Below, piece by piece: positions 208-57,307 of a stretch of 64,000 nucleotides of DNA; within the stretch, counting starts at the first letter, position 1, and every line of letters starts with the position of its first letter. A program made the translations under genes and the position numbers. Source of the stretch: an uncultured Hormoscilla sp. (GTDB taxonomy: Bacteria; Cyanobacteriota; Cyanobacteriia; Cyanobacteriales; Desertifilaceae); contig OZ001293.3 in NCBI GenBank assembly GCA_963921275.4, positions 2,944,001 to 3,008,000 on the forward strand, written 5' to 3'. Below the pieces are notes generated by a model. It was not told the DNA's origin and searched no databases. It saw only the letters and a list, made by a program, of their open reading frames with translations.

Positions 208-289
208 AATTTTTCGGACTATTAAAGGATCTCAAGAATGGATTGCGGGGCTGCTGCCGACACCCCAAATTAATACCAATAGTATGATT

Positions 290-1357
290 TTAATCTCTAC
301 TCTGCCCATCTGGGGCTAAAATTTGATGCAATAAATCTCGATGACTCAGGGCCCGGTCTACAAGGGACTGAATTTGATTGGCATCTAGGGGAGCTCTCTG
401 GCGGAAATGTGCTAACCAGGTTTTGCTAAGAAGATGGGGATCCTCTGGCATTTGGGCTAACTGCCATCCAGGTAGAGCCAGTTCTGCCATCAGTTGGTCT
501 ACCTTCGGATCGTAACTGACGGCTATGCATTGACATTGGGCTGCTGCTGCCATAATCATAGCATGCAGGCGCATGGCGATCGCCATCTGTACCCCCTGAA
601 ATACCCCTTTGAGAACTTTGGGATCTTCGAGCATGATAATTTGGCTGACTCCCGATAGCTGGGGTCCGATGGCCTGGGCGATCGGCATCTCGATGTCTGG
701 TTGAAAGAGGAGGAGTAAGATGCTGGCATTGGTAGCTTGCTGAAATAGTACCAGAGCCCGGGTGAGATTGTCCAGTCGCTGTGGTGTCAGTTGGGGGTGT
801 GGGCGCAATGTGACGGCAACTCTCGGTTCTGGTAAGTCCCGCAGTGCTGGGACTGGTTTTGAGTCTAAGGCCCAAACGGGGTCTGGTGCTAAATTATAGG
901 GTATTTGCCATGCTTGCAGGACGGCAGCTGAGGCTCGATCGCGGACCGAGACTGCCGTGCAACCAGCAAAGGCCCGCCGCGCGATCGCCCGAGTCAGGGG
1001 ACGGTGTAGGGGGCCAATTCCCTGGGCCCAAGCAATTGTTTTCAAGCCCATCTGTTGTGCTAATCCCATCAAACCACTATAGTATAGAGGACTAAGAGCG
1101 CTAGTGGCATCTTGGATTAAACTACCGCCGCCCCAGATGAAAACCTCTGAGTTACTTAATGCTGACAGGACTTGGAACGCGGATAGGCGATCGCGAGAAA
1201 CCACCCCGTAGCGAGTCTGGGTTTGGTGAGGATTTCCTGACAATACCAAAGGCGTCACATTTTCTGGTAACATTTGCAATAGGGTGGCCAGCAATGCCTC
1301 ATCGCCGCCATTACCTTTACCATAGTAGCCGCACAATACCGCCCTAATTTTCTTCAT
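290..1357 (-). CDS. csaB: polysaccharide pyruvyl transferase CsaB
   Basis: GYYGKGNGGDEALL, GGGSLIQD, SVRD, MRLH and SYDPKV motifs. Confidence 0.92.
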   Translation of the reverse strand: MKKIRAVLCGYYGKGNGGDEALLATLLQMLPENVTPLVLSGNPHQTQTRYGVVSRDRLSAFQVLSALSNSEVFIWGGGSLIQDATSALSPLYYSGLMGLAQQMGLKTIAWAQGIGPLHRPLTRAIARRAFAGCTAVSVRDRASAAVLQAWQIPYNLAPDPVWALDSKPVPALRDLPEPRVAVTLRPHPQLTPQRLDNLTRALVLFQQATNASILLLLFQPDIEMPIAQAIGPQLSGVSQIIMLEDPKVLKGVFQGVQMAIAMRLHAMIMAAAAQCQCIAVSYDPKVDQLMAELALPGWQLAQMPEDPHLLSKTWLAHFRQRAPLDANQIQSLVDRALSHRDLLHQILAPDGQSRD

Positions 1358-12755: not shown

Positions 12756-12988
12756 TGTAACCTTACTGCTCGCACGGTGTAACCTTACTGCTCGCACGGT
12801 GTAACCTTATTGCTCGCAGGGTGTAACCTTATTGCTCGCACGGCGTAACCTTATTGCTCGCAGGGTGTAACCTTATTGCTCGCACGGCGTAACCTTATTG
12901 CTCGCAGGGTGTAACCTTATTGCTCGCACGGCGTAACCTTATTGCTCGCAGGGTGTAACCTTACTGCTCGCAGGGTATAACCTTACTC
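12756..12988. repeat. 22-bp tandem array, about 10.5 copies
   Basis: unit (T/C)GTAACCTTA(C/T)TGCTCGCA(C/G)GG; no spacers. Confidence 0.95.
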
Positions 12989-28705: not shown

Positions 28706-29606
28706 TTTTTTGTAGTATTCTATCATTATTTTTTTAGAAATGATAGCATTAGAATGTTGAGCGATTAGCAGCCCTCTCCTCGCCTTAAGTCAAGGGTCTT
28801 CCCGATGAACCATGATTTCCAGTTCAAAAGCATCACACATAAAATACTCCTCTGTTATTTTAGCTAAAAAATCTTCTACTGCTTGCGGCAACTGTGGTTT
28901 GTTCACCTGCTTGAGAATGGGTTTCCATTGAAATTTTTTGTACTCCTCAAATAAAGCCGGAATAGTAGGACCGGGTGCCCAAGCTTCAAAATCATCTTCA
29001 AACAGGGGAGTGTGGTCAATAGCCAGATGCCAAGCTTGGGCATAATACACCAGCTTCTGTAGCTTGAGATTACTGATGAATGAACCAGTATCGTTGGCAA
29101 CCCAAATGAAGTAATCTGAAATTTCGCTAGCAGTCGTTATCGTCCTTGCTTCGACAGCACGACTCTTGTAAAACTCTCTCATTGATTCTTGAGAAATTAT
29201 AGCATGAGAAGGTTCATCTCTAGGTAAACCTTTCCTGGCTTTAATCCAAGGATATTCCCGACAAACCATCATTTCTAGTTCTAAACCAGTGCCAAGAAAA
29301 TATTCTACTGTTATATCCTCCAAAAACTCCTCTAATTCTGGCGAAAACTGTGGTTGTTTTACTTCCTTAATAATTGGTTTCCATTGAAATTTTTTTGTAC
29401 TCCTCAAATAAAGCCGGGATAACAGGACCATGTACCCAAGCCTCGAAATCATCTTCAAACAGAGGACTGTCGTGAATCGCCAAATGCCAAGCTTGGGCAT
29501 AATATACTAGCTTCTGTAGCTTGAGGTTACTGATGAATGAGCCAGTGTCGTTGGCCACCCGGATGAAGTAGTCGGCTATTTCGCCAGCAGTCGTTATCGT
29601 CTTCAT
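28694..29606 (-). pseudogene. tandem double Panacea (DUF4065/SocA-like) antitoxin, disrupted
   Basis: two SNLKLQKLVYYAQ...FEAW.(H/P)GP units; +1 frameshift in A7 run near 29390; probable TGG>TGA at 28790. Confidence 0.88.
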
Positions 29607-33502: not shown

Positions 33503-33723
33503 AAGCTATTGCATGCTTACACTAAGCTATTGTATGCTTACACTAAGCTATTGTATGCTTACACTAAGCTATTGTATGCTTACACTAAGCTATTGTATGC
33601 TTACACTAAATTATTGTATGCTTACACTAAATTATTGTATGCTTACACTAAATTATTGTATGTTTACACTAAGCTATTGTATGTTTACACTAAGCTATTG
33701 TATGCTTACACTAAGCTATTGTA
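33503..33723. repeat. 21-bp tandem array, about 10.5 copies
   Basis: unit AAGCTATTGTATGCTTACACT with block-wise variants. Confidence 0.95.
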
Positions 33724-46418: not shown

Positions 46419-47636
46419 CTACTGAAGTTCTCCCGTTACCAACCTCCTCAAAATCTCGGTCACTTCCGCAGCCATCCGGGCATCTACCTCTACGGCCTCC
46501 CGGTCGCGTAGCGTGCGCGCAGCGCAATCGAAATCACCCAATGCTTTGGCACAGCGCAGGGTCATGGCCACAGAGATTAGTTTGTCCTGGTAATCAAACT
46601 GAGTAAAGCAGGTGTAAGTTAACTCGGTGCGCTGTTGCCAGCTACTGTAGCCAAAGCCCATTTTCGAGAGTATGACAGGCTTGGAGATCCTATTTTGGAT
46701 GCCTAGCTTCTCAATGGCTACGTCAAGGTAGCGGCCAGGATCTTTACCCAGAGCAAGAATAAATGGTTTCAAGTTGTCCCAAGAACTTCCAGGCAATTGC
46801 GCTGTCGATGGCAGGTGATAATGCCACCCTACCATTGAGATGATTCTCGTCAAGTCATAAGCTGTCACCGAGTTTTCGGTCTTCTCTGTTTCTGGTGCAG
46901 CAGTCAATAGCACCTCATCTGACTTAATCACTTCCGGGTTAGCAATAAACGGATCTTCACCATACATCCCCCGAAATATGGTATGGGGCGTACCAGTAAT
47001 TCCCTTCAGCCATGCTTCTAAATCAGCAAATGTCTGAAAACGCTTAAACATGGCTGCTATAGAATTAGAACTACCTATCTTTGAGTCATAGGTAACAATA
47101 TCCTCGATCAGTTCCGGGATGCCAAAGCTTTTGCCATCACCCCTGACTGCACAAGCATTGATATCTGTCTTGAGGGAACAGATGACATTCAGAATGGGAA
47201 TGATTTTGGTCGTACTCCAAAACTCACCCCGGACGCGGGCTTCTCTTCCCAACCAACGGGCTTTGAATGGCCCTCCTTCCGCACCGCCAATGCAAATACA
47301 GGCTTGCTTGATGTCGGGATGGAGAAATTCTAGTGCTTGTTCGTCAATTGCGGGCAACTCCCCTACTTGGGGATAAGAGGGAACTCCCCCGATCGCCAAG
47401 GAAGGCTGTTCGGTTAAATAGTCTGGGTAATTCTCCACCTGACTGTGATAGGGTGAGTTTTTAATCCCTTTGTCTAGAAAAGCTAGCTTATAGCTGTTGA
47501 AGCCTGCTTCTGAGTCTAGAAACTGATTGTAGACCAGATTCCGATCTTGGGCTATTGTCAGAGAGACGGTCTCGCTGACGAAATTAAAAAAGTTAGTAAT
47601 CAGCTCAGTTATCGTATGAAGTGTCAATTCATTCAT
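46419..47636 (-). CDS. hypothetical protein with beta-lactamase/PBP-like motifs
   Basis: FWSTTK (SxxK), SSN (SxN), SKMG (KTG-like) in canonical order. Confidence 0.6.
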   Translation of the reverse strand: MNELTLHTITELITNFFNFVSETVSLTIAQDRNLVYNQFLDSEAGFNSYKLAFLDKGIKNSPYHSQVENYPDYLTEQPSLAIGGVPSYPQVGELPAIDEQALEFLHPDIKQACICIGGAEGGPFKARWLGREARVRGEFWSTTKIIPILNVICSLKTDINACAVRGDGKSFGIPELIEDIVTYDSKIGSSNSIAAMFKRFQTFADLEAWLKGITGTPHTIFRGMYGEDPFIANPEVIKSDEVLLTAAPETEKTENSVTAYDLTRIISMVGWHYHLPSTAQLPGSSWDNLKPFILALGKDPGRYLDVAIEKLGIQNRISKPVILSKMGFGYSSWQQRTELTYTCFTQFDYQDKLISVAMTLRCAKALGDFDCAARTLRDREAVEVDARMAAEVTEILRRLVTGELQ

Positions 47637-47683
47637 TCCTACTACTGCTCCTTTTCCTGCTCAAAAGCATCACGGACGATGGA

Positions 47684-49641
47684 TTACAAAAACCACAAAC
47701 GCCGATCGCGCTGCATTCCTGGCGGGAGCAGGTCTTTTAAGGCACGCGACGCTGCCCGATCGGCATAATAGGTGGTAATGGGTAAGCGGACAGTCTGAGT
47801 CGTGCCCACTTGCATCAGACTTAACCAGTATACCTGTTCGGCGAGGGTAAGTAAATCCGTCTCGCCCATCCTTTTTCTAATGCGCAGGGGACGGGGAGCA
47901 CTCTTAGGACTTACTTTAGTCTCGCGCCGACCCGTCGTCAGAATCACCGCTTCATTGCGAGCATATTCCCAAGCATATCCATTTTCCGGGTTCCTGGAAT
48001 TCTTAGGATTCTCTGGGTTATATTCTACAGCTCGACAAGTCCCTGATTTGATTACTTCCACCACATCCACCTGTTTTATTCCGGCTACATGTTTCTGCAA
48101 ATCCGAAATTGCTTCCATCTCTGCATCTCGAACATCCCCGTCGCGATGAATCACTAAATGTTGGAGCTTGCACTTAAAATGGCGATCGTACAATATGACA
48201 AAATTTCCTAACCAATCCATGAGTTGAACGCGATTGAGGGCTTCTCTGTAGACAGGAAACTTAGCTGTTGACCAACCGATCGTCCTACCGGTTCTGTCTA
48301 TCAAGAACGCTGCCGCGACTGTGTCCCTATTTTTCCTGCCAAAATCTAGACCAATAAAAGCTTGGGCTTTTCCTGGCATATCCTTCAGACGCCAACTGAA
48401 ATGACCGAGTTTGGCATTGATTCCCAGAATTACATTCCGACCGATATACTCGTTCCATCCCCTTTTGAGGGTAGATTTGGTAATCATCTGAGATGGCAGT
48501 TGCCGCTTGACAAATTCCTGCTTAATCAGTTCGTAAGGATTGACCTCTCGCGTAAAGTATTTTTCCCCCGGTTTGGGAACGTAAGCAATGACAGCAGCTT
48601 ATGCGCTTTCATTCCAGCCGCTGGATAGGGAAATAAACCTTTTCCAAAATCGAGATTACTCGAACCCTGCTTAAAGTTTTGCAGGTTTCGCGGTTCGCGC
48701 AGGGACTCGGAAAACTTGACGGGAATGTCATTCAGATGAAAGCGATTTTTGGCGTTGAGAAACTTAATGCTGGAGATCGCCTTCTCGACTTTTTCGCCAA
48801 TGGGCAATAGTTGCTGTTTTAAAAACTCATCTTCTACGTCTTCTCGGTCATAAATTTTCCGCAACAGTTGCGGCATGTGGCTGGCCTCAAAATCTATTTT
48901 CCCACTATTTTTATACTTCACCGTGACCGCTGGTGTCGAGGGGTCTAAGGAATTAAGTAATTCATTATCCAGGTTACCTTTTTGCTTGTGGTAGTCAAGG
49001 ACACTCTTATTCCCTAGGGCAGATAGTATAGTGCTAATGTTTTTTTCCTTGTCGATGCGGACAAATTCACAAACCTTGTCATCATACTTGTGCAGCAAGC
49101 GATCGCCAGGATCCAAACTGTCCAGTCCCAGTTGGTCGATCGTCAACTGGGAGTGATACTCGTTAGCGAAGTCAAGCACTAAAACTAAATGCTGATTTTC
49201 TTCTCGGATAAAGTAAAATTTCAGATACATTTGACCTTCCATCCCATCCGTAGTTACCCTCTCTTTGGAATAAATACGTTGGCGCTCGCGATCTACTTTC
49301 GGAGGATGCTTGGCGCTCTGAAAAGCATTATACAGGGCAAAGTTGCAAACCTGGAACAAGTAGCGATTGTATCTGGGTTCAGCTAAGTTAATTGACTCTT
49401 CGTCTATAATACTGTAGCGATCGTCCTGTCTGGCCAACGGAACTAAACTTAAAATGGCACAGTTAGTGATGTCTGCAAGAATGGCAGTTTTGTGTTTCCA
49501 TTTCAGACTCCTAGCTAACGTTCCCAGTTTTCTGGGTAGTTCGTCACTTGCTGCATTTAGTCTGACGCGATAGCGGGTGTAAGGTAGTGAGACGATCGGC
49601 TTTTGACTGACAAAGCTCAATTCTCGTATTAGCATCGGCAT
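47684..49641 (-). pseudogene. ago: long prokaryotic Argonaute, split by an apparent internal deletion/frameshift
   Basis: PIWI motifs NAKLG, FIGLDFG, VIHRDG, EVIKSG, LPITTYYAD; MID Y..IK..PSQMI in the downstream frame; frame switch near 48595. Confidence 0.88.
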
Positions 49642-50019
49642 TGACTCCCTTGACTTGACTTAGCTTACCATAATCTGGGCGATCCATAACTGCTATATTT
49701 TTTTGTCGCCTGTGCTACTGTTTTTGACTGGTGACCGGACCAGAATCCCCAAGGTTCTGTCGCGCTATTAAATTGCAGAGGTCGAAAAGCTGATGTCTTT
49801 GTTATCAATGGCTTTCCCAATTTAAAATTTTGAATTGCTTAGTCACTCTTCAATGCTACTATATAAATTATAGATCCTATAGGGTTTCCTGTCCTTCAGT
49901 GGTCAAAAGTAGTTGTATTAGTGGGGAACAGGGAACGGAGAACGGGGAACAGGAAACGCTCGCAGGGAACGGCGAACGGTTGCCAACGGGCGCAAGACCA
50001 CACCCGTTTAAAACCCCGA

Positions 50020-50720
50020 CGGAGAGGTTTGAAACCCAAACGCGCGTCTTGAATCTTGCCAAGTATTCCCTGAATCTCCTCAATATCATAACCGTCAAGG
50101 AATCTGAACACGGAGGATGCCAGATACTCCCGATCGATAAAATGTGCAACGCCCTCTCCAGCTTTCGCCAGGGAGTTGCCTTCCATTCATCTTTAACGCA
50201 GAGTTGCGCGACTTTAACGTAGAGTCACGCGACTTTAACGCAGAGTCACGCGACTTTAATGCAGAGTTGCGCGACTTTAACGCAGAGTTGCGCGACTTTA
50301 ACGCAGAGTTGCGCGACTTTAACGCAGAGTTGCGCGACTTTAACGCAGAGTTGCGCGACTTTATATATTGGTTATATGACTTTTACGCAGATGCTCCGAA
50401 TATAAGGGTTTTGAAGGTTGCACAATCACGGGATGATAAGGGCTGCTAATGGCTAATACTCAAAGGTTAATCTAGATAGTCATTGGTAGTCATGAATAGA
50501 TTGATTTACTCTTTGCAATTAGCAATTTTCAACCATTGGCTCTTCCAAATGGCTTTATCCACTCGACATACTCGGTTTCCTCGACATTACCATAGGTTTT
50601 CTTGCGGCGCAGGGCAAAAGGCGGGGAAGTCATGACAAGATCGATACTGTTGTCTAGCAACTCTGCTAGGAGTTCAAAGGAATCACCTACGTAGGCTTGA
50701 CCTCTTGTTGTGTGATAAAT
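50020..50720 (-). pseudogene. PvuII-type N4-cytosine methyltransferase, shattered
   Basis: N-part GDS..L..SIDLVMTSPPFALRRKKTYGN (50540-50720); C-part EYLASSVFRFLD (about 50020-50135) resembles the M.PvuII C-terminus as I recall it; middle missing. Confidence 0.75.
50191..50363. repeat. 21-bp tandem array, about 8 copies
   Basis: unit CTTTAACGCAGAGTTGCGCGA. Confidence 0.95.
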
Positions 50721-51855
50721 TTGAATTAAAGGTATCAACAAGAGCCGTCGCTGAAGTTGCCGAAGCGAATTTGCCTAATGCCCATGCTGCTCCTGCCCGT
50801 AGTTCCTCATCACGGTCGCTGTCCTGCAACACCTCAATCAGTATGCTTTTGCTATGTTTCTTTGGTATTTCGGATACCACAATGACTGTTTCCAGTTGTG
50901 TTTGAAGGGGCACGCTCATGACTGGGCTTCGCAGTTTTCTCTCTATGAACTTCCAACCATTCGGGTCGTCGTATGCAGCCAGGGCCGCCGCCGCCTCCAG
51001 TTGAACGTAGATATCCTCATCGGGATCGTTCATCCGGGATGCGAGTGCAGACTTAGCATTGCTATAACCGCGATAACGCAGAGCCTTGGCAGCCGCATAT
51101 CTTTCGCTGAGATTAACACTAGCGAGTTTGTCTGTAAAATATGTTTCATCAATTGGTGGGGGACATTTGAGGTCTGTATAGACAGGTACAACTGACGCAA
51201 CAATTTGATTTGCTTCCACTAGATCTCCTACTTTAACCTGCGGTAACAAGGTTATCTTTCCTCCACTCCGGCTTAACTGGATAGTTTGCCGACGCCCATT
51301 CTGGATCGGAGTAAGACTGACCTTATTAGGTTCCACAGCAAAAACTTGTGACCTCTGTTTGGCAGCGGCACATACCCACACTACCCTGATTTCATAGCCT
51401 TCCTCGACCCCTTTTGGCTGAGTGATAGACACTTGTTCGGCGCTAAAGGCATTACGCAGATCGCTGACGCTAACAAAATGAATAGGAGAAATTTGCTTCA
51501 GGTCAACAGGAGAACCATCTTCTTGCTCAAACATAATGATTGAAACCAGGTCATCATCCCGCATTCCAGCATCCCATGATCTCTTGGGATCCTTCAGGGA
51601 ATGAGACATTGATATTTCGAGTTTTGTCTTGCCGCGAGATTCAAACCTAAGCCCCGTGTTTAAGCAGAGGATGTCAGGCATCCGTACACGCTTGATCTTG
51701 ATTTTCTTCCAAATCTTAAAGCCAGTAGACCCGCGATCGAGTTCGATCGGGTTAAAGTCCATGCTTCTCAGATAGGCAATAGTCGCATTTGTCCCGGCTG
51801 CACCAACCGCAAGTTTTCTCAAGAAACTATCGTCGCTCTTAAAATTATTTGCCAT
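50683..51855 (-). CDS. putative nuclease with HEAT repeats, C-terminally truncated
   Basis: PDILC...FESRGK; HEAT-like ERYAAAKAL, VQLEAAAALA, LRAGAAWALG; directly upstream of the MTase. Confidence 0.65.
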   Translation of the reverse strand: MANNFKSDDSFLRKLAVGAAGTNATIAYLRSMDFNPIELDRGSTGFKIWKKIKIKRVRMPDILCLNTGLRFESRGKTKLEISMSHSLKDPKRSWDAGMRDDDLVSIIMFEQEDGSPVDLKQISPIHFVSVSDLRNAFSAEQVSITQPKGVEEGYEIRVVWVCAAAKQRSQVFAVEPNKVSLTPIQNGRRQTIQLSRSGGKITLLPQVKVGDLVEANQIVASVVPVYTDLKCPPPIDETYFTDKLASVNLSERYAAAKALRYRGYSNAKSALASRMNDPDEDIYVQLEAAAALAAYDDPNGWKFIERKLRSPVMSVPLQTQLETVIVVSEIPKKHSKSILIEVLQDSDRDEELRAGAAWALGKFASATSATALVDTFNSNLSHNKRSSLRR

Positions 51856-52028
51856 TTTTGCCCCACCATATATGAAGTCCTTTTCATTTCTGGTATCAAT
51901 GTATTATTTTTGGATCGCGGCATTGCCTGTACTGGCATGCTTCCTACGAAGGAATACGTACTCTACGGGCGATCGGAAAGTGATAGCAGCGATCGCCTTA
52001 AGGAAAGGTGGGCGGTGCCCACCCTACT

Positions 52029-52976
52029 TTAATTAGAACTTTCAACGGATTTAGCATTGCTAGGGGCAAAAATTTGCCGACCCGTTAAACTGTTCAAATA
52101 CATCCCGCCCACGGTAACCAGGAACAGGAGGTAACCCACTGCTTCTACACTATACATCTGTTCCCGGTAGCCAAACAATATTTTCAACAGAATTCCGGGA
52201 AATTGCTTCTGGGGGAGAATGCTTGAGGCATCCCAAACCATTGGTCCTAAGACACATGAACTGTTTGTCGCCAAGTCTCCGTAGAAACATAGCCCTGCTT
52301 GGGAATTCATCTCTGCCAGTTGACTGACAACAATGTCTAAATGTGCTAAAGCAGAGATCACTAAACCAGCAACAATCAGCAGCAACAAGACACCCATCAC
52401 CTGGAAAAAGGCGCGGATGTTGATTTTGACTCCCAATTTGAAGATTAGCAGGCCAATTATTGCCGCCATCACCACGCCGGCGATCGCCCCGACAACTGGA
52501 GTTAACCCTGATTGGAAGTAAGCAAGTACCAAGGAAACCGCCTCAAAGCCTTCTCGTAAGACAGCAATCAGAATTAAAGTAAAGATCCCCCAACCTGCAT
52601 TATCTCGTGCGATCGCCGTTTTCACGGCCCCTGCAACTTCCGCCTTCATCGTTCGGGCCTGTTGAGTCATCCAGACTAGCATCCAACTCAGGAGGGCGAT
52701 CGCGACCAAACTAAATCCCCCTTCCAGAGAGTCTTCTATCACCTCCTCATACTGGGGATAACTAGCAGTTAAACTCGCCATTCCCCAACTAAACAATATC
52801 CCAACTAAGGCACTTGCGACAATTCCCACCGCGATGCCACCATAAACCCAAGGGTTCAACTGACTCTGTTCGGCCTTTTTCAGGCAAGCTAAAACAATTC
52901 CCACCACCAGTGCGGCTTCCACCCCTTCTCTGAGGGTGATTAAAAAAGTTGGTAAAGCTGAAGTCAAATCCATCAT
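52029..52976 (-). CDS. FTR1 family iron permease
   Basis: two RExxE motifs (REGVE, REGFE), multiple TM helices. Confidence 0.92.
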   Translation of the reverse strand: MMDLTSALPTFLITLREGVEAALVVGIVLACLKKAEQSQLNPWVYGGIAVGIVASALVGILFSWGMASLTASYPQYEEVIEDSLEGGFSLVAIALLSWMLVWMTQQARTMKAEVAGAVKTAIARDNAGWGIFTLILIAVLREGFEAVSLVLAYFQSGLTPVVGAIAGVVMAAIIGLLIFKLGVKINIRAFFQVMGVLLLLIVAGLVISALAHLDIVVSQLAEMNSQAGLCFYGDLATNSSCVLGPMVWDASSILPQKQFPGILLKILFGYREQMYSVEAVGYLLFLVTVGGMYLNSLTGRQIFAPSNAKSVESSN

Positions 52977-56041: not shown

Positions 56042-57307
56042 ATGAGTAGTGAGACAAAGAAAGAACGACCGATCGCAGTAGACTTGTGCGCAGGTGCAGG
56101 AGGGATGACCCTAGGGTTTGAACAAGCAGGGTTTGACGTGCTGGCATCTTTTGACATAGACCCAATACACTGCGCTATCCACGAGTATAATTTCCCCTTT
56201 TGGTCAGTATTATGCCAGAATATAGTAGAAATTACGGAAGAGGAAATAAGGTCGAGGTCAAAAATAGGCGATCGGGAGATAGACGTAGTGCTGGCAGGAT
56301 TACCAATATATCAAGGATTGGCATCCAAGGGCAGACGGGCAGCGGAGGAACAGCGGAACTCGGTGTTGTATCATTTTCACAGACTGGTGGTGGAGCTACA
56401 ACCGAAATATTTTGTGATGGAAAATGACCGGGGACTGGCGATCGGGAGGCCAAAACAGCGACTGAAGACTTTGATCAAGGAGTTGAAGGCAGCAGGCTAT
56501 CAAGTACAAGAGGAATACAAATCTCTCAATGCAGCCAACTACGGGGTACCAGAGGCTCGGGAACGATTGTATCTGCTAGGATGCCGGTCAGACAGGAAGT
56601 TGCCGAAATATCCCCCGCCAACGACGAAACCAGCAAAACCCAAGCTGCGCGATCGGCATCGAGATTCAGATCTGCCCCCCGGTCCCACGGTGTGGGATGC
56701 ATTATCAGACCTGCCAGAAGCGAAAAACTACCCAGAATTGTTCAAGCAGGACTGGGCCCAGGCCGAGTACGGCAAGCCTAGCGATTATGCCAGGGCACTG
56801 CGCGAGCGGGACTTTTTAGAAGATAATTATGCCTACGAGCGGGAATACAATCGACAACTGCTCACGGCCAGTATGCTGACTAAACATTCATTGCGATCGA
56901 TTAAACGATTTGAGAATACCAAAGAGGGTCAAAGGGAAAAAATCAGTCGTTTCCAGAAGCTGCATCCAGAAGGAATATGCAACAGTCTCCGGGGGGGAAC
57001 GGACAGGAATCAGGGTTCATTCACGGCCCCGAGACCAATTCATCCCTATATACCCAGATGTATCACAGTCAGGGAAGCAGCAAGGATGCATTCTTTCCCG
57101 GACTGGTTTAGATTTCATGGAACGAAATGGCACGGCTTCCGACAAGTGGCCAATTCTGTACCGCCATTGCTGGCCTTGGCCCTGGGGGCAGAGATTATAC
57201 GTGCCTTGGGAGTGGTACCGTCTAAACCGACGGTCAAGCAGGAGTTGGGAGATAAGAAATTACTACAATTAACTAATTCCCAAGCAAGTCTGCGTTACCG
57301 TTCGTAG
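56042..57307 (+). CDS. C5 DNA methyltransferase homolog of M.Ssp6803I/DmtC type with degenerate active site
   Basis: RPIAVDL.AG.GG, EKISRF..LHP.G.CN.LR.GT, FTAPRPIH, ITVREAAR; motif IV reads GLPIYQGL. Confidence 0.85.
   Translation: MSSETKKERPIAVDLCAGAGGMTLGFEQAGFDVLASFDIDPIHCAIHEYNFPFWSVLCQNIVEITEEEIRSRSKIGDREIDVVLAGLPIYQGLASKGRRAAEEQRNSVLYHFHRLVVELQPKYFVMENDRGLAIGRPKQRLKTLIKELKAAGYQVQEEYKSLNAANYGVPEARERLYLLGCRSDRKLPKYPPPTTKPAKPKLRDRHRDSDLPPGPTVWDALSDLPEAKNYPELFKQDWAQAEYGKPSDYARALRERDFLEDNYAYEREYNRQLLTASMLTKHSLRSIKRFENTKEGQREKISRFQKLHPEGICNSLRGGTDRNQGSFTAPRPIHPYIPRCITVREAARMHSFPDWFRFHGTKWHGFRQVANSVPPLLALALGAEIIRALGVVPSKPTVKQELGDKKLLQLTNSQASLRYRS

Follow-up and report, generated by a model that had tools for sequence, protein, structure and literature searches.

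A probable PvuII-site restriction-modification cassette with a HEAT-tailed putative endonuclease decays beside an unrelated Argonaute pseudogene in Hormoscilla

The PvuII restriction-modification (R-M) system, as presented in the parts of PMC2997769 considered here, comprises M.PvuII, R.PvuII and C.PvuII, and the product of its methyltransferase (MTase) is N4-methylcytosine (m4C) in CAGCTG. Prokaryotic Argonautes (pAgos), according to the corresponding parts of an operon survey (PMC6299218), have R-M components among many kinds of neighbours, most groups being without a defined operon, and section 5 of PMC10653904 gives just two pAgos of filamentous cyanobacteria as predicted to be active. Here we describe a locus in which remnants of an R-M cassette and of a pAgo gene lie side by side. 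The analysed stretch of 64,000 nucleotides, called the window below, covers positions 2944001-3008000 of contig C1 in the 7.0-Mb genome of an uncultured Hormoscilla sp. (G000). It carries on its minus strand the genes for a HEAT-repeat nuclease, an MTase and an Argonaute (ago), each broken by deletion. The locus very probably represents a decayed type II R-M cassette directed at the PvuII site, whose HEAT-tailed endonuclease has gone unannotated, and next to it the unrelated pseudogene of a long-A pAgo. No gene of the present cluster is functional today.

Scoring of 8,000 candidates gave 1,320 homologs of the HEAT nuclease, from many phyla. Nearly all of the top 120 are 491 amino acids (aa) long, with identities of 77-94%, and 152 clusters, formed at 50% identity, reach an E-value of 1e-30. 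The source databases label the family only as hypothetical or HEAT-repeat proteins, and none of the nuclease models in Pfam, PADLOC and NCBIfam matches the protein, for which Pfam gives HEAT_2 only, as it does for the 390-aa open reading frame (ORF) of the window. The ESM Atlas returned unnamed HEAT clusters only, and the intact ortholog P0066 (WP_186407051.1) had no match in the plasmid and phage collections. An AlphaFold2 model of an intact family member was obtained with a predicted local distance difference test score of 93 and a predicted template modelling score of 0.90. In a wide search with VIA against 48,161 chains, a separate model of residues 1-230 matched PD-(D/E)XK nucleases, the top match being Hjc (Z 9.5; root-mean-square deviation 2.9, 109 aligned residues), followed by I-Ssp6803I (Z 8.9), D212 (8.5), NhoI (8.1) and MspI (7.2), with PvuII matching at the level of the fold (Z 6.0-6.5). 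Residues ~161-225 matched biotinyl-lipoyl and RNA-polymerase barrel modules, and Foldseek with the whole model returned HEAT/armadillo proteins only. The motif P60-D61...E72xRxK76 (PD-x10-ExRxK) is kept in the window copy, and 102 diverse homologs all have D61, E72 and K76. As modelled, the N-terminal domain does adopt the PD-(D/E)XK fold, with D61, E72 and K76 as putative catalytic residues. The protein falls outside the R.PvuII family: P0066 gave no match to R.PvuII at E <= 10, in contrast to the true R.PvuII homolog of locus L184, which matches at E 3e-47.

The genomic context was analysed at 140 HEAT-nuclease loci, 57 from a near clade that includes the present copy and 83 from a distant clade (the best 80 of 260 metagenome matches plus three loci found in viral contigs). 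An MTase gene adjoins the nuclease gene in 128 of them; 11 of the other 12 are at contig ends or have less than 340 bp of upstream flank, and one is a fragment. Near-clade loci carry a co-oriented R-M pair, with a PvuII-type MTase directly after the HEAT gene in 49 of 57 (seven misses are at contig ends and one is a fragment) and a single weak match to a controller protein. Distant-clade loci have an adjacent MTase in 79 of 83 cases, the four misses having less than 340 bp upstream; the MTase is divergent in 77, and a controller-protein gene lies directly upstream of the HEAT gene in 72. Three arrangements occur there: a ~590-aa enzyme with a DPPF motif (65 loci), a divergent PvuII-type enzyme (12) and a downstream PvuII-type enzyme (2). 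The intact MTase of L011 matches M.PvuII (1BOO) at E 2.7e-138, with ~65% identity counted from the alignment, and the motif T/SSPPF is present in 62 of 62 PvuII-type MTases. By full-length homology and the SPPF motif, the intact orthologs are members of the M.PvuII family, the window copy being a remnant. T/SDPPF, which points to adenine methylation, is found in 59 of 63 distant-clade MTases, and the other four have no such motif. The two MTase types alternate several times on the endonuclease tree, a midpoint-rooted FastTree of 80 sequences whose clades carry no test and in which L166 counts as the 590-aa type. Since an R.PvuII homolog occurs in just three of the 140 loci, the HEAT protein is normally the sole candidate endonuclease seen. 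The intact orthologs thus combine separate, adjacent endonuclease and MTase genes with a nuclease fold and conserved residues, as in type II R-M systems.

Two side observations concern the partners of the nuclease. The ~590-aa MTase (L126:1598-3364 and 64 other loci among L102-L182) has a zinc-ribbon insert and the sequence TDPPF. Two viral-collection contigs (L183:8001-11201 and L184:1-3220) each encode a HEAT endonuclease, a convergent true R.PvuII homolog and one common M.PvuII-like MTase; two genes beside the L183 cassette are presumably recombinase-like.

Observed/expected ratios (O/E) were calculated for the 64 palindromic hexamers plus CAGCGG/CCGCTG. CAGCTG was the most depleted palindrome both in 55 near loci (O/E 0.19, the next being 0.51) and in the 83 far loci (0.32); because it is the most depleted there too, the ~590-aa enzyme is a candidate N6-methyladenine (m6A) methyltransferase for CAGCTG. 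In 33 regions of host genomes far from the cassette, CAGCTG again ranked first (O/E 0.27). The control, 40 regions of genomes related to four hosts but without a match to the gene, gave an O/E of 0.67 and rank 5. Four of the hosts had one CAGCTG site versus 50 expected, and regions of at least 15 kb free of the site numbered 16 of 27 in hosts versus one of 27 in non-hosts. This avoidance is strong but indirect evidence, read from sequence composition, that the recognition site of the cassette is probably CAGCTG. A relaxed site such as CMGCKG, the MspA1I/NspBII-type site, has in its favour that it contains CAGCTG as a subset, but CAGCGG was undepleted (0.92 and 0.95), for which reason this specificity was rejected, and CCGCGG stood at the background level (0.75). 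The T/SDPPF motif of most distant-clade MTases would, moreover, need an A in both strands. The enzyme might also be one already named in REBASE, for which the comparison covered a 2008 file of REBASE family alignments, one that has no MspA1I family alignment. Five motifs of the family were not found among the alignments of that file (PMC2441816, supplement file 2), in which positive-control motifs were found, although gaps and line breaks can hide motifs. We regard the relaxed-site or named-enzyme explanation as very improbable.

The pattern of decay bears on the function of the HEAT protein. After exclusion of 19 loci at contig edges and 12 that have no MTase gene, 109 loci remained. Both genes are intact in 97 of these, the endonuclease gene is broken and the MTase gene intact in 11, and the reverse occurs in none; at the single locus with both broken, the MTase gene heads toward a contig end. 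In the four Hormoscilla genomes with the cassette, the endonuclease gene is broken in all four and the MTase gene kept in three. Decay that begins with the endonuclease, together with host-wide site avoidance, fits a site-specific toxic endonuclease, and the 11 versus 0 loci with the CAGCTG avoidance indicate, indirectly, the type II property of an endonuclease that is toxic without its MTase in a host that avoids the site. The same two observations argue against the idea that the HEAT protein is an accessory nuclease (a nickase, repair enzyme or abortive-infection effector) travelling with CAGCTG MTases, as does its occupation of the slot after the controller in the 72 distant-clade loci and the lack of any R.PvuII homolog in 137 loci. 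That idea can draw on the co-occurrence of a true R.PvuII homolog in L183 and L184 and on two negative results: no PADLOC model of a restriction endonuclease matches, and no description of a HEAT-repeat restriction enzyme was found in the literature searched, including the parts considered of PMC2441816, PMC12707154 and PMC11090510, with most subscription journals, patents and REBASE outside the scope. On balance we consider an accessory role improbable.

Several points weigh against the assignment of the HEAT protein as a CAGCTG endonuclease. Both cleavage and specificity are deduced from sequence and model. The Z values of the VIA search are moderate, the best being 9.5 where the tool's chance-level best is 7-8, and Foldseek with residues 1-230 gave no nuclease match, only weak matches to RNA polymerase barrels in the PDB and none at E <0.001 in BFVD. 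The main endonuclease of L183 and L184 may be another than the HEAT protein, since both loci also have a true R.PvuII homolog served by the same MTase. Part of the broken endonuclease genes may be assembly frameshifts. Mild avoidance of CAGCTG exists without the system, as the ratio of 0.67 indicates; no more than four hosts have relatives in the control, and related genomes are not independent samples. Finally, the present genome does not avoid CAGCTG (O/E 0.92), which fits a short-lived or dead system and lends no support.

We propose that the cassette was horizontally acquired and would have acted as a type II R-M system for CAGCTG. The M.PvuII-like enzyme, to judge from its identity to M.PvuII, would N4-methylate CAGCTG in the host, and the 491-aa protein would be the endonuclease, its small Hjc-like PD-(D/E)XK core being predicted to cut incoming DNA at CAGCTG sites that lack methylation. 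For the barrel module and the HEAT solenoid, the most likely role would be DNA recognition or dimer scaffolding. A more speculative reading is that the solenoid is a protein-binding sensor or switch, responding to a phage, anti-restriction or host protein, so that the enzyme would be a ligand-regulated CAGCTG endonuclease for which m4C and m6A MTases are interchangeable. We think this doubtful; in its favour, surface-type residues of the solenoid (K257, E287, E322, E329, R353 and W484) are kept in at least 90% of the 102 sequences. In Hormoscilla the R-M cassette would have inserted beside FTR1 and lost its endonuclease first, the MTase being lost as well in the present genome.

The remnants of the cassette and of the ago gene are listed in Table 1. 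The original prediction, made from the letters alone, had described three co-oriented and damaged genes, encoding a nuclease-like N-terminus fused to HEAT repeats, a PvuII-type N4-cytosine MTase and a long pAgo, with about 400 bp between the last two, and this description holds in all its parts.

Table 1. Features of the Hormoscilla locus (window positions; residue numbers for the protein domains)
Feature	Position	Strand	Remarks
405-aa gene directly downstream of ago	46419..47636	-	synteny anchor of the ago block
3' part of pAgo pseudogene (end of MID + PIWI)	47684..48592	-	out of frame
DEDD residues of the window ago	D48346, E48244, D48142, D47761	-	all present
5' part of long-A pAgo pseudogene (N, L1, PAZ, L2)	48593..49641	-	residues 1-350
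Junction region, short dispersed repeats	49642..50044	.	about 4.7-6.7 kb here in sister genomes (MNT-HEPN and XRE-PIN toxin-antitoxin genes, insertion sequence)
3' MTase remnant, codons ~280-311	50045..50138	-	93.6% DNA identity to L004 10294-10387
Dispersed-repeat DNA (~400 bp) in place of MTase codons ~67-279	about 50139..50539	.	
5' MTase remnant, codons ~7-66	50540..50719	-	TSPPF present, without start codon; 98% DNA identity to intact L004/L011 MTases
Truncated HEAT-tailed PD-(D/E)XK endonuclease gene	50720..51855	-	codons 1-379 of 491 kept
Catalytic-type residues of the HEAT nuclease	D61 at 51675, E72 at 51642, K76 at 51630	-	
FTR1 iron permease gene upstream of cassette	52029..52976	-	synteny anchor of the R-M block
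Domains of the intact 491-aa protein	residues ~1-160; ~161-225; ~237-490		nuclease core; sandwich-barrel-hybrid-like module; HEAT solenoid

Relative to the Hormoscilla locus L004, a 358-bp deletion (L004 9118-9475) has taken ~112 codons from the end of the HEAT gene together with codons 1-6 of the MTase gene, and the nuclease ORF (51855-50683, 390 aa) continues out of register to a stop at 50683. The repeat DNA that replaces the middle of the MTase gene contains a tandem array (21 bp x 8.2, 50191-50363), and pieces of it recur at 36 other places in the genome. A frameshifting deletion of ~196 bp in the MID domain of ago, at 48593/48592, has cost residues ~351-416. The MTase remnant ends 403 bp before the start of ago. 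Assembly error as the cause of the two junction deletions was rejected, since sequencing contigs cross both: Logan contigs from three samples of a single study (runs X1, X2 and X4), one of which may be the source, run from 47000 or 47057 to 49928 and from 50472 to 52500 without a single difference, the ago and HEAT/MTase junctions included. At the ago break, a different strain (run X5) has ~197 bases more. None of the listed contigs spans the repeat stretch 50315-50415, and no RNA data holding the locus were listed. A promoter and terminator scan of the locus gave nothing above chance; a sigma-70-like site at 49895-49867, oriented into ago, is a lead only, with 8 promoter sites found versus 6.6 expected. 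As a separate observation, the ~400-bp repeat element that interrupts the MTase gene here has in another genome, G632 (L269:9776-10273), taken the place of most of the HEAT gene, so that it has hit the cassette twice, at different places.

The Argonaute of the window matches PAZ_3 and Piwi. The intact ortholog P0272 has its best PDB matches in CpAgo, CbAgo and KmAgo (E 4e-31 to 1e-15), CpAgo and CbAgo being closest, and the remnants and intact orthologs together show the N-PAZ-MID-PIWI architecture and DEDX tetrad of a long-A pAgo, part of MID being lost in the frameshifted window copy. The clade has members in Hormoscilla, Prochloron, Moorena, Aerosakkonema and Leptolyngbya, and a pAgo match occurs in 60 of 201 genomes of the order. 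In the wider CbAgo-like long-A clade of filamentous cyanobacteria and Prochloron (P0270-P0325), 38 of 56 sequences fit a loose pattern with D-D-D at three tetrad positions. A second, distantly related long pAgo lies outside the window (C1 ~3,059,200-3,062,200; L098:9182-12207), directly downstream of a PDDEXK_1 (Cas4-like) gene. Both genes of this pair are frameshifted in G000, and the ago is also broken in G198 (L100:5103-8137). The parts of PMC10653904 considered describe a PDDEXK_1-type nuclease with ago as a recurring cyanobacterial pairing, unlike the adjacency to the HEAT nuclease.

The original prediction had further called a coupled R-M/Argonaute system conceivable, DNA ends made by nucleases being a known source of pAgo guides. 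On this reading the endonuclease supplies such ends to the pAgo, and it is for this supply that the three genes stay linked. The co-orientation and the short gap in the present genome speak for it, as do the presence of both blocks on one contig in G000, G198 and G631 and, in the parts of PMC10250240 considered, the acquisition of guides by CbAgo from engineered double-strand breaks, CpAgo and CbAgo being nearest to the window protein among solved structures. Co-occurrence, scored in both directions, revealed no recurring linkage, an outcome that the original prediction had itself named as refuting. The 140 HEAT loci were searched with a hidden Markov model, built from 57 homologs together with 25 long ORFs of ago loci, and by tblastn with full-length P0272. 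This found ago in two only, L004 and L011, both from Hormoscilla, and in none of the other 138, which total 1.54 Mb, form 117 clusters at 95% and in 57 cases have at least 2.5 kb on both sides. The Pfam Piwi model, run over 50 of 57 genomes with the HEAT gene, matched in two Hormoscilla genomes and one other, that is, in one of 48 non-Hormoscilla genomes, on a different contig. In the reverse direction, a sample of 400 other cyanobacterial genomes (top three candidates scored per genome) and the six genomes with the closest ago orthologs gave no match to the HEAT gene, and five close orthologs of ago lie among housekeeping genes with no endonuclease or MTase gene of the cassette nearby.

The arrangement also varies within Hormoscilla. 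FTR1 adjoins the cassette in G000, G198, G631 and G632, and the 405-aa gene adjoins ago or its remnant in G000, G198, G632 and G633. The distance between ago and the MTase gene is 0.4, 4.8 and 6.7 kb in G000, G198 and G631, respectively; the intervening DNA of the latter two holds MNT-HEPN and XRE-PIN genes on the opposite strand, an insertion sequence and other genes. In G632 the ago and the cassette are on different contigs, the toxin-antitoxin block staying with ago. In G633 the ago is intact and encodes 712 aa, and a HEAT gene was not found. Recurrent linkage of ago and nuclease in one operon is thus not seen, being absent outside the genus and variable or absent within it. The fixed anchors and the variable distance between them indicate that the adjacency is the end of a rearrangement and a deletion, and the 400-bp spacing is, from the sequence comparison, a product of deletion. 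We propose that a stand-alone, CbAgo/CpAgo-like long-A ago with a DEDD tetrad, normally beside the 405-aa gene, was inactivated here by the MID deletion, that in some members of the genus a rearrangement would have brought the two blocks to within 5-7 kb of each other, and that loss of the toxin-antitoxin genes would have left 400 bp between them in the present genome. Loading of guides from restriction ends is, by analogy, possible as plausible chemistry and could occur in trans, for which linkage is unneeded; both genes are dead here. Coupling as a conserved system is refuted, and we hold it to be exceedingly improbable as an account of this locus.

Other features of the genome were noted in passing. 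The 405-aa gene has no match in Pfam, PADLOC or NCBIfam; we take its STTK and KMG motifs to recall a serine beta-lactamase/PBP-like fold. A gene on the plus strand (56042-57307) is presumably a C5-cytosine methyltransferase look-alike, and has LPIYQG at the expected position of the catalytic PCQ, as is also the case in L004. The window contains further tandem arrays and a 457-bp duplication (12756-12985, 33503-33723, 28773-29601; 22 bp x 10.5, 21 bp x 10.5). Contig C1 strongly avoids GTCGAC (O/E 0.02), ACGCGT (0.05), CGTACG (0.06), GTGCAC (0.08) and TTCGAA (0.13), which points to other, long-resident R-M systems.

The adjacency of the R-M cassette and Argonaute would be an accident of genome decay, and the value of the locus lies in the endonuclease family, which is missed by the nuclease models of PADLOC, Pfam and NCBIfam. 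Lacking such a model, defence inventories would count these cassettes as orphan methyltransferases. From the family one would predict an enzyme that acts at the PvuII site but is built differently, and also a methyltransferase that probably makes m6A in CAGCTG.

Compared with pAgo systems that have a co-encoded nuclease (short pAgo-APAZ, long-B operons and long-A with a Cas4-like protein), as covered in the parts of PMC6299218 and PMC10653904 considered, the locus is alike in having a nuclease gene upstream on the same strand. In those systems the association recurs across genomes, whereas the present one is found in only some members of a single genus and varies by genome. The Argonaute shares PAZ, MID, PIWI and the DEDD tetrad with CbAgo, CpAgo and KmAgo, and differs in that its clade is cyanobacterial, lies among housekeeping genes and is represented here by a pseudogene. 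Likeness to the PvuII system lies in the MTase, the probable site and, in the distant clade, the controller and endonuclease genes with a divergent MTase gene. In contrast to PvuII, the near clade is co-oriented without a controller, 65 of 83 distant loci have an unrelated ~590-aa DPPF MTase, and the endonuclease is a three-domain protein of 491 aa with no sequence match to the 157-aa R.PvuII. The best fold matches of its core are minimal Hjc-like PD-(D/E)XK nucleases, namely archaeal Hjc, I-Ssp6803I, fusellovirus D212 and NhoI (Z 8.1-9.5), to which the HEAT protein adds a sandwich-barrel-hybrid-like module, a HEAT solenoid of ~250 residues, the PD-x10-ExRxK motif and a methyltransferase partner.

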